From Escherichia coli (GTDB lineage: Bacteria > Pseudomonadota > Gammaproteobacteria > Enterobacterales > Enterobacteriaceae), in assembly GCF_003334335.1 (NCBI RefSeq), contig NZ_QOWQ01000004.1: DNA of 64,000 nucleotides. One strand, 5' to 3'. Position 1 is the stretch's first letter. Every line of letters begins with the position of its first letter. The notes below the pieces were generated by a model that was not told the DNA's origin, did not search any database, and worked only from the letters and a program-made list of their open reading frames with translations. The translations under genes were made by a program, and so were the position numbers. Shown one piece after another: positions 61,209 through 61,302 of this stretch.

Positions 61209-61302
61209 TTTCTCCCTCTCCCTGTGGGAGAGGGCCGGGGTGAGGGCATCAGCGCGCACGTTCACCCTCACCCTAACCCTCTCCCTCAAGGGAGAGGGGA
61301 CC
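61209..61302. repeat. GC-rich palindromic intergenic repeat cluster (box C-like)
   Basis: Three hairpins sharing ccctctccc/gggagaggg and gtgaggg/ccctcac arms between hrpB and mrcB; family assignment from memory, approximate. Confidence 0.6.

Follow-up and report, generated by a model that had tools for sequence, protein, structure and literature searches.

A strain-variable composite BoxC repeat between hrpB and mrcB of Escherichia coli

The spacer between hrpB and mrcB of Escherichia coli carries a non-coding, multi-copy and strain-variable repeat in the 64,000-nucleotide stretch of DNA analysed here (the window), and this GC-rich cluster is the published E. coli BoxC repeat, also described as PIT, TMECO and HPGQ. 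Very probably it is a composite BoxC element, with one type B and one type A unit arranged tail to tail in a variable spot behind hrpB, and not a dedicated mrcB regulator. Considering that the copy is exactly the published one and that a third of strains lack it, it has to be regarded as an ordinary feature that was already known rather than as a new regulator of mrcB. What has been added to the published catalogues is an allele census of the locus, the conserved outer flanks of the element and a REP-like palindrome at the same site in Salmonella and Citrobacter.

Anatomy and identity of the element

The DNA is E. coli K-12-like, with window coordinates converted to those of strain MG1655 by adding 103333, and a 1.1-kb query around the site has matches in all 5426 complete E. 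coli genomes, in the hrpB-mrcB context. The hrpB stop codon (61199-61201) lies 6-12 nt before the start of the element, and the ATG of mrcB (61397) is found 85-190 nt downstream of it. The layout (61208-61312) is that of two inverted units of 33-34 nt, each built as CCCTCTCCC-loop-GGGAGAGGG-NNN-GGGTGAGGG, which flank a centre of 18 nt. The first is BoxC/TMECO unit no. 1 (61214-61247, + strand; equal to HPGQ no. 5, group HPG2), a type B unit reading CCCTCTCCC-TGT-GGGAGAGGG-CCG-GGGTGAGGG-C, with its blocks at 61214-61222 (CCCTCTCCC), 61226-61234 (GGGAGAGGG) and 61238-61246 (GGGTGAGGG) separated by the loops tgt and ccg. The second is unit no. 2 (61264-61298, - strand; equal to HPGQ no. 6, group HPG1), a type A unit reading CCCTCTCCC-TTGA-GGGAGAGGG-TTA-GGGTGAGGG-T, which appears in the + strand as CCCTCACCC (61265-61273), a taa loop, CCCTCTCCC (61277-61285), a tcaa loop and GGGAGAGGG (61290-61298). 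The centre, atcagcgcgcacgttc, occupies 61248-61263 and reaches 18 nt (61247-61264) when both bases that end the published units are counted. It is the second loop that marks the type, CCG in unit 1 being that of type B and TTA in unit 2 that of type A, and the units stand tail to tail. Outside them lie TTTTCT (61208-61213, + strand), the conserved outer flank of type B units, and the outer flank of the A unit (61299-61312, - strand), which reads GTGCTCGATCGGTC on its own strand and GACCGATCGAGCAC on the + strand.

Both units match exactly the CCCTCNCCC-N3-6-GGGNGAGGG-N3-GGGNGAGGG pattern of Holder et al. (2015), at 61214-61246 (+) and 61265-61298 (-). In each unit nine of nine block positions form Watson-Crick pairs, and by sequence rules only all nine would also be allowed as purine-motif triads (G.G:C, A.A:T, T.A:T). 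Taken as terminal inverted repeats, the units are 27-nt arms that are 81% complementary and have related outer flanks. The sequence-only reading had described these arm sequences between hrpB and mrcB correctly and had counted three hairpins; the hairpins are real and constitute one valid reading of the cluster, which is better described as a pair of three-block units in inverted orientation, with type B on the + strand and type A on the opposite one.

Enrichment of the blocks in the 64-kb window is pronounced, with four matches to GGGAGAGGG against 0.15 expected, five to GGGTGAGGG against 0.38 and three to the hairpin pattern CCCTCNCCC-N2-7-GGGNGAGGG against 0.00. Predicted RNA folds of the two strands reach -73.9 kcal/mol (+ strand, z = -7.5) and -67.4 kcal/mol (- strand, z = -6.0), with no shuffled sequence as stable in either case, and the minimum-energy fold is a single hairpin about 85 nt long.

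Both units have been catalogued before. In Table 1 of Holder et al. (2015; PMC4666352), TMECO no. 1 is CCCTCTCCCTGTGGGAGAGGGCCGGGGTGAGGGC, type B, at MG1655 164547-164580 on the + strand, and TMECO no. 2 is CCCTCTCCCTTGAGGGAGAGGGTTAGGGTGAGGGT, type A, at 164631-164597 on the - strand; window positions 61214-61247 (+) and 61264-61298 (-) are identical to them. Kaplan et al. (2016; PMC5100583) placed HPGQ no. 5 (midpoint 164569, +) and no. 6 (midpoint 164608, -) between hrpB and mrcB, the listed entries of their groups HPG1 and HPG2 being the G-rich parts of both units. The TMECO motif has been equated with the BoxC repeat of the 1990s and with the PIT element of Hoyne and Maher (PMC4666352); BoxC goes back to the surveys of Bachellier, Clement and Hofnung from that decade, and PIT to Hoyne and Maher (2000/2002). 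The element described here shows no difference from BoxC/PIT/TMECO, having the same sequence at the same genome coordinates. In MG1655, 23 TMECO units have been reported, all of them intergenic (Holder et al., 2015; PMC4666352), with five inverted pairs that each consist of one type A and one type B unit (PMC4666352), the hrpB-mrcB pair being one of these five. BoxC has also been recovered as a 22-copy family (Petrillo et al., 2008), and the literature gives between 22 and 32 copies in K-12.

A blastn search with the element found it in 5332 of the 5426 E. coli genomes, at a median of 11 and a maximum of 26 places per genome, and 58,345 of the 58,388 places were on chromosomes. An Rfam scan of 60900-61700 (E <= 10) gave no family above its gathering threshold, the hits being generic microRNA hairpin models (the highest score, 29.4 bits, compares with a threshold of 74), and the K-12 RefSeq annotation has no repeat feature at the site. 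The proposal that the cluster belongs to a dispersed GC-rich repeat family is thus borne out by the published tables (PMC4666352; PMC5100583) and by the number of places per genome, and the proposed name "box C" proved right, since Holder et al. (2015; PMC4666352) list both units at the exact MG1655 coordinates and identify their motif with BoxC.

Flanks and relatives of the element

The limits of the element were taken from comparison with the K-12 inverted pairs at fepB-entC, ygfF-gcvP, alx-sstT and lldD-trmL, together with two single copies. TTTTCY, or a variant that differs from it by one base (TGTTCT), stands before six of the seven B-type units compared (five K-12 loci, M7638 and F8111), the exception being fepB-entC, where TTCTGCC precedes the unit. 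Before the A-type units of F8111 and of the other K-12 loci there are related flanks of 13-14 nt ending in GTC, namely GTGCTCAGACAGTC, GGACTCGGTCAGTC, GCGCCGAACGGTC and GTATGAGCAGTC, which places the right end of the element near 61312. The span of the element is therefore set by these family-conserved flanks at about 61208-61312; the cluster of about 95 bp originally noted at 61209-61302 is confirmed, and extended on both sides.

The centre is shorter here (18 nt) than in three other K-12 inverted pairs (27-29 nt). The short form is common to the inverted allele of strain F8111 described below, and resembles the tail of a single B copy in the xynR-argF spacer of MG1655. This copy (L129, 7547-7579) is located in the cryptic prophage CP4-6 and is a single type B unit with the same sequence as the B unit at hrpB-mrcB; behind it comes a tail, caccaacgcgcagcgg, that is centre-like and similar to the short hrpB-mrcB centre. 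The likeness suggests that the xynR-argF and hrpB-mrcB copies form a small subfamily, or that the former is a decayed pair.

A shorter relative of the element had been proposed between the convergent genes ampE and aroP. The hairpin at this site, CCCTCACCC-tgtac-GGGTGAGGG (16812-16834), exists as it was described; its membership in BoxC is unproven, given that it contains two of the three defining blocks and has no family flanks. The third G block is absent, GGGTGAGGG being followed by cgt-agagagatt, and neither flank signature (TTTTCY or the sequence ending in GTC) is present, the hairpin being preceded by gattattg. It does not appear in Table 1 of the TMECO study (PMC4666352), it has a T-run on neither side, and it is essentially invariant, with the site covered in full and in one place in 5370 of the 5426 E. 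coli genomes. It may be an old BoxC remnant, or an unrelated structure common to the 3' ends of both genes. A lone GGGTGAGGG at 24498-24506, which by its coordinates is in the aceF-lpd spacer (with a gene start near 24578), is not accompanied by partner blocks and was put down to chance.

Three alleles at the hrpB-mrcB site

Allele states at the locus were first seen in a four-strain alignment and were then counted with 60-nt junction probes over the 5426 complete E. coli genomes, 5424 of which could be accounted for. The forward allele, in the orientation of the window, is carried by 3507 genomes, the empty allele by 1885 (35%) and an inverted allele by 32. The hrpB-mrcB spacer measures 195 nt where the element is present, as against 93 nt where it is absent. 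Compared with the sequence of the empty site, the inverted allele has the appearance of a clean insertion, and no target-site duplication was evident on comparing the two filled alleles with the empty one, with junctions that are blurred by small differences.

The inverted and forward alleles share an identical half of 52 nt, in which the B unit, its TTTTCT flank and most of the short centre are the same, and their A halves differ by about 25%, as estimated from the sequences. Examples of the inverted allele are found in strains F8111-1SC3 (L002, 703-812) and WEM25 (L131). In 270 nt of hrpB/mrcB flanks, inverted-allele strains show 0 and 1 mismatch to forward-allele strains. Between the two inverted alleles there is hardly any difference, a finding consistent with transfer through recombination. 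The inverted allele may have arisen either through a flip in place followed by spread via recombination, or through a second insertion.

The orthologous locus was taken from Salmonella enterica and Citrobacter freundii by way of their HrpB relatives; in a Klebsiella contig the gene neighbours differ from the hrpB-mrcB arrangement. No BoxC was found at the locus in either S. enterica or C. freundii. Directly after the hrpB stop, both have a REP/PU-like palindrome, GCCAGATAAGGCGTTAATCGCCATCCGGC in S. enterica (L253, approximately 2672-2715) and GCCTGATAAGCGAAGCGCCATCAGGC in C. freundii (L254, approximately 1003-1035). These palindromes (GCCAGATAAGGCG..CATCCGGC) are distinct in sequence from BoxC, and no resemblance to the REP consensus was found in the E. 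coli element. Since the outgroups have a REP-like palindrome and no BoxC, the BoxC element is derived at this locus, and the spot tolerates different repeats. The 3' side of hrpB is in this way home to two unrelated repeat families. Like BoxC, REP/BIME sequences are short, GC-rich, palindromic, intergenic and multi-copy, and are frequently positioned after stop codons. However, their sequence is unrelated, neither the REP consensus nor the association with a RAYT transposase applies to BoxC, and the three-block purine/pyrimidine layout sets BoxC apart from them.

Occurrence of the core beyond enterobacteria

An exact scan for GGGAGAGGG-NNN-GGGTGAGGG, with one genome per species, yielded at least 120 loci, and among the matches listed nearly all contain the full three-block core. 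Also among the matches listed, the core is present in several copies within single MAGs of Alpha-, Gamma- and Deltaproteobacteria, Verrucomicrobia, Armatimonadota, Nitrospirales and Candidatus Gracilibacteria, and the flanks are lineage-specific, with the core common to the lineages. At least 20 core copies occur in a Candidatus Gracilibacteria MAG, where the sampled loci have a G+C content of 28%, and, by inspection, 35 nt of one Armatimonadota copy are the same as in the type A unit of E. coli. A longer repeat, some 90 nt in length and divided into two subfamilies, encloses the core in the 'GL140_5' MAG.

The core has also been seen within coding sequence. A SufS-like gene of Candidatus Gracilibacteria (L085, approximately 2259-2291) is continuous under genetic code 25 with the BoxC core in frame (..ERVALTLTLSQRERGLNEK..), which amounts to 7-9 additional residues relative to another SufS. 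By a rough count among the matches listed, 8 of 12 Gracilibacteria copies are inside long open frames.

Viral and plasmid sequences carry the core as well. At least 120 viral contigs of IMG/VR contain the full three-block pattern, with G+C contents from 0.32 to 0.74 among the matches listed; one of them (L196), which encodes terminase, portal, major head and tail proteins, has three intergenic copies (4964-4998, 6154-6188 and 10652-10686). Among the matches listed no bias in orientation relative to flanking long open reading frames was found in the viral contigs (49 vs 55), and a strand-specific role in RNA accordingly receives no support from them. In curated phage genomes blastn identified four records only; considering that blastn detects single units whose loops differ less readily than the pattern scan does, this result does not contradict the scan of the viral contigs. 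BoxC-like sequence is present in 344 plasmid records of PLSDB, 113 of them predicted to be conjugative, and by genus the records include Klebsiella (143), Escherichia (42), Enterobacter (38), Citrobacter (34), Aeromonas (33) and Azospirillum (14). Some multi-megabase 'plasmid' records with such sequence are probably chromosomes. An example of a plasmid copy is found in NZ_CP117961.1 at 36946-36998.

Previously, 262 proteobacterial genomes had been described as carriers of the motif, and mobile elements or plasmids had not (Holder et al., 2015; PMC4666352). The wider spread may be new, since that study reported proteobacterial genomes only and no mobile elements. A tentative and somewhat doubtful reading is that the core of about 33 nt is a horizontally spreading mini-element with a very wide host range, reaching beyond enterobacteria. 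If this were true, shared machinery, or the structure of the DNA itself, would copy the core into the 3' ends of genes. The hrpB-mrcB locus lends support to such spread, having captured both orientations in E. coli and a REP-like palindrome in other genera.

Mobility of the element

The filled, empty and inverted states, taken together with the plasmid copies, point to insertion of a non-autonomous element. As an alternative account of the locus, the element could be MITE-like and moved by some enzyme, the two orientations representing two independent insertions into a preferred target, a reading that is quite possible but falls short of probable. It agrees with the existence of all three alleles, with the resemblance of the inverted allele to a clean insertion into empty-site sequence, with the inverted-repeat ends and conserved outer flanks, with the 344 plasmid records as carriers, 113 of them conjugative, and with the presence of several core copies both in distant phyla and in a genuine structural module of a phage. 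Neither a target-site duplication nor a transposase has, to our knowledge, been described for BoxC. None of the former is evident at hrpB-mrcB, which counts against an enzyme-driven insertion, and the 52-nt identical half would fit a single origin followed by inversion or gene conversion equally well. Neighbouring genes offer no candidate enzyme either: among the matches listed, an all-against-all blastp of 978 open reading frames within 1.5 kb of the cores (120 loci from 14 MAGs) revealed no recurrent protein family beside them, only unrelated housekeeping coincidences. Without a target-site duplication or an associated transposase, the case for insertion of a mobile element is drawn only from the comparison of filled and empty sites.

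Some MITEs, such as the Rickettsia palindromic elements, are able to sit inside genes. Like these, the BoxC core is short, it is open in five of six reading frames and it has been seen in frame at least once; the two differ in that the E. coli copies are all intergenic (PMC4666352). Near the E. coli units, Holder et al. saw no remnants of transposases or integrases (PMC4666352), a further point against a MITE-like origin.

Structure and possible function

Several properties of the repeat have been studied in the literature. Isolated strands form a stable triplex by NMR and a duplex once the complement is added (PMC4666352), and CD has given a quadruplex-like signature in K+ and a hairpin-like one in Mg2+, with the duplex preferred in the presence of the complement (Kaplan et al., 2016; PMC5100583). 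The G blocks were read as G-quadruplex in the latter study, whereas Holder et al., under the conditions they used, ruled out a quadruplex by NMR for the complete unit. Footprinting with DMS in vivo showed no triplex protection, and sequence change was greater around TMECO sites than around control sites (PMC4666352). As far as they are summarised in PMC4666352, earlier PIT studies described polymerase blockage in vitro, no promoter or terminator activity and no effect in vivo. No later functional study of BoxC/PIT/TMECO/HPGQ was found in the literature.

From these data a structural account can be proposed. In the single-stranded state, the C block of a unit would pair with the first G block in a 9-bp hairpin, on which the second G block would then lie as a purine-motif triplex, as in the published NMR; alternatively, the two G blocks could form a G-quadruplex in K+, as the published CD suggests, and the inverted pair could adopt one long hairpin or a cruciform. 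With the complementary strand present, the ordinary duplex would be expected to win. Structures of this kind stall polymerases in vitro and are associated with local instability, a possible consequence that would fit the three alleles at the locus. Because the in vivo DMS footprint lacked triplex protection (PMC4666352), structure-driven instability is something that we infer only.

The element is, as the sequence-only reading had held, not a simple terminator, since its hairpins are followed by ccgggg and gaccga, with no T-run, and an intrinsic terminator scan of 61000-61500 found none on either strand. A transcript reading through from hrpB would end in a very stable hairpin with no U-tract. 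An effect on hrpB 3' stability or on read-through into mrcB would be optional rather than required, because one third of E. coli have no element, and on the best account the repeat is dispensable and prone to adopt structures, and any influence on hrpB 3' ends or mrcB read-through is incidental. A modest effect on hrpB or mrcB transcripts may occur in the strains that carry it.

REPs are able to stabilise upstream mRNA. A comparable task has to be considered for the present element, which would form the 3' end structure of hrpB mRNA, protecting it from exonucleases or partially blocking read-through into mrcB. This is the most credible rival on the question of function, because of the position of the element, which begins 6-12 nt past the hrpB stop, and because a REP-like palindrome takes the exact same position in Salmonella and Citrobacter; the predicted folds would moreover give a hairpin in either orientation (-73.9 and -67.4 kcal/mol). 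It is weakened by the 35% of strains (1885 of 5426 genomes) that have no structure at the site at all. The lack of a U-tract and of a terminator by scan, the absence of terminator activity for PIT elements in the tests that PMC4666352 cites, and the lack of strand bias, both among K-12 units (Holder et al.; PMC4666352) and relative to flanking long open reading frames in viral contigs, also argue against it, and a role of this kind is considered unlikely.

The region relevant to mrcB appears to lie elsewhere in the spacer. An 84-nt block outside the repeat (61313-61396, + strand), running from AATTGAGAGAT to the ATG, is near-invariant in an alignment of the three E. coli alleles with S. enterica and C. 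freundii, in which the stretch from the hrpB stop to the block is free to vary. The block contains a small hairpin, TTCTTCTGT..ACAGAAGAA (arms at 61330-61338 and 61345-61353), whose arms are still pairable in the other genera, and it gave neither an Rfam match nor a consensus promoter. Judging by its conservation, it is probably the real leader or promoter region of mrcB, and the signals relevant to this gene are most likely located downstream of the BoxC element. The suggestion that the element lies inside the mrcB leader or promoter therefore finds no support, as it sits upstream of a block that is conserved in E. coli, Salmonella and Citrobacter.

A role in mrcB expression fares no better. 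The idea, in which an influence on mrcB as suggested by the sequence-only reading is combined with a speculation of Kaplan et al. (2016; PMC5100583), is that a switch between G-quadruplex, hairpin and duplex in the promoter or leader would tune PBP1b expression; it can appeal to the location of the element 85-190 nt 5' of the mrcB ATG, to the different conformations of the G strand in K+ and Mg2+ in vitro (PMC5100583) and to the 8 of 16 HPG1 members that lie upstream of operons (Kaplan et al.; PMC5100583), but it is very improbable given that the 84-nt block is the same with the element, with its inverted form (32 genomes), without it (1885 of 5426) and in genera free of BoxC, that a scan of 61000-61500 found no sigma-70-like promoter, that duplex is preferred when the complement is present (PMC5100583), that TMECO units neither keep a constant distance from open reading frames nor have neighbouring genes of any one functional class (PMC4666352), and that promoter and terminator tests of PIT were negative as summarised in PMC4666352.

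Significance

The hrpB-mrcB copy, catalogued twice before, is of little consequence by itself. Its practical value is negative, in that annotation of the repeat as a terminator, or as a regulatory element for mrcB, should be avoided. The wider puzzle concerns one precise purine/pyrimidine sequence of 33 nt, which recurs many times over in genomes as different as those of E. coli, bacteria of candidate phyla and phages. The series of states at this locus, which includes empty, forward, inverted and REP-like forms, offers a small and tractable entry point to the question of how it spreads.
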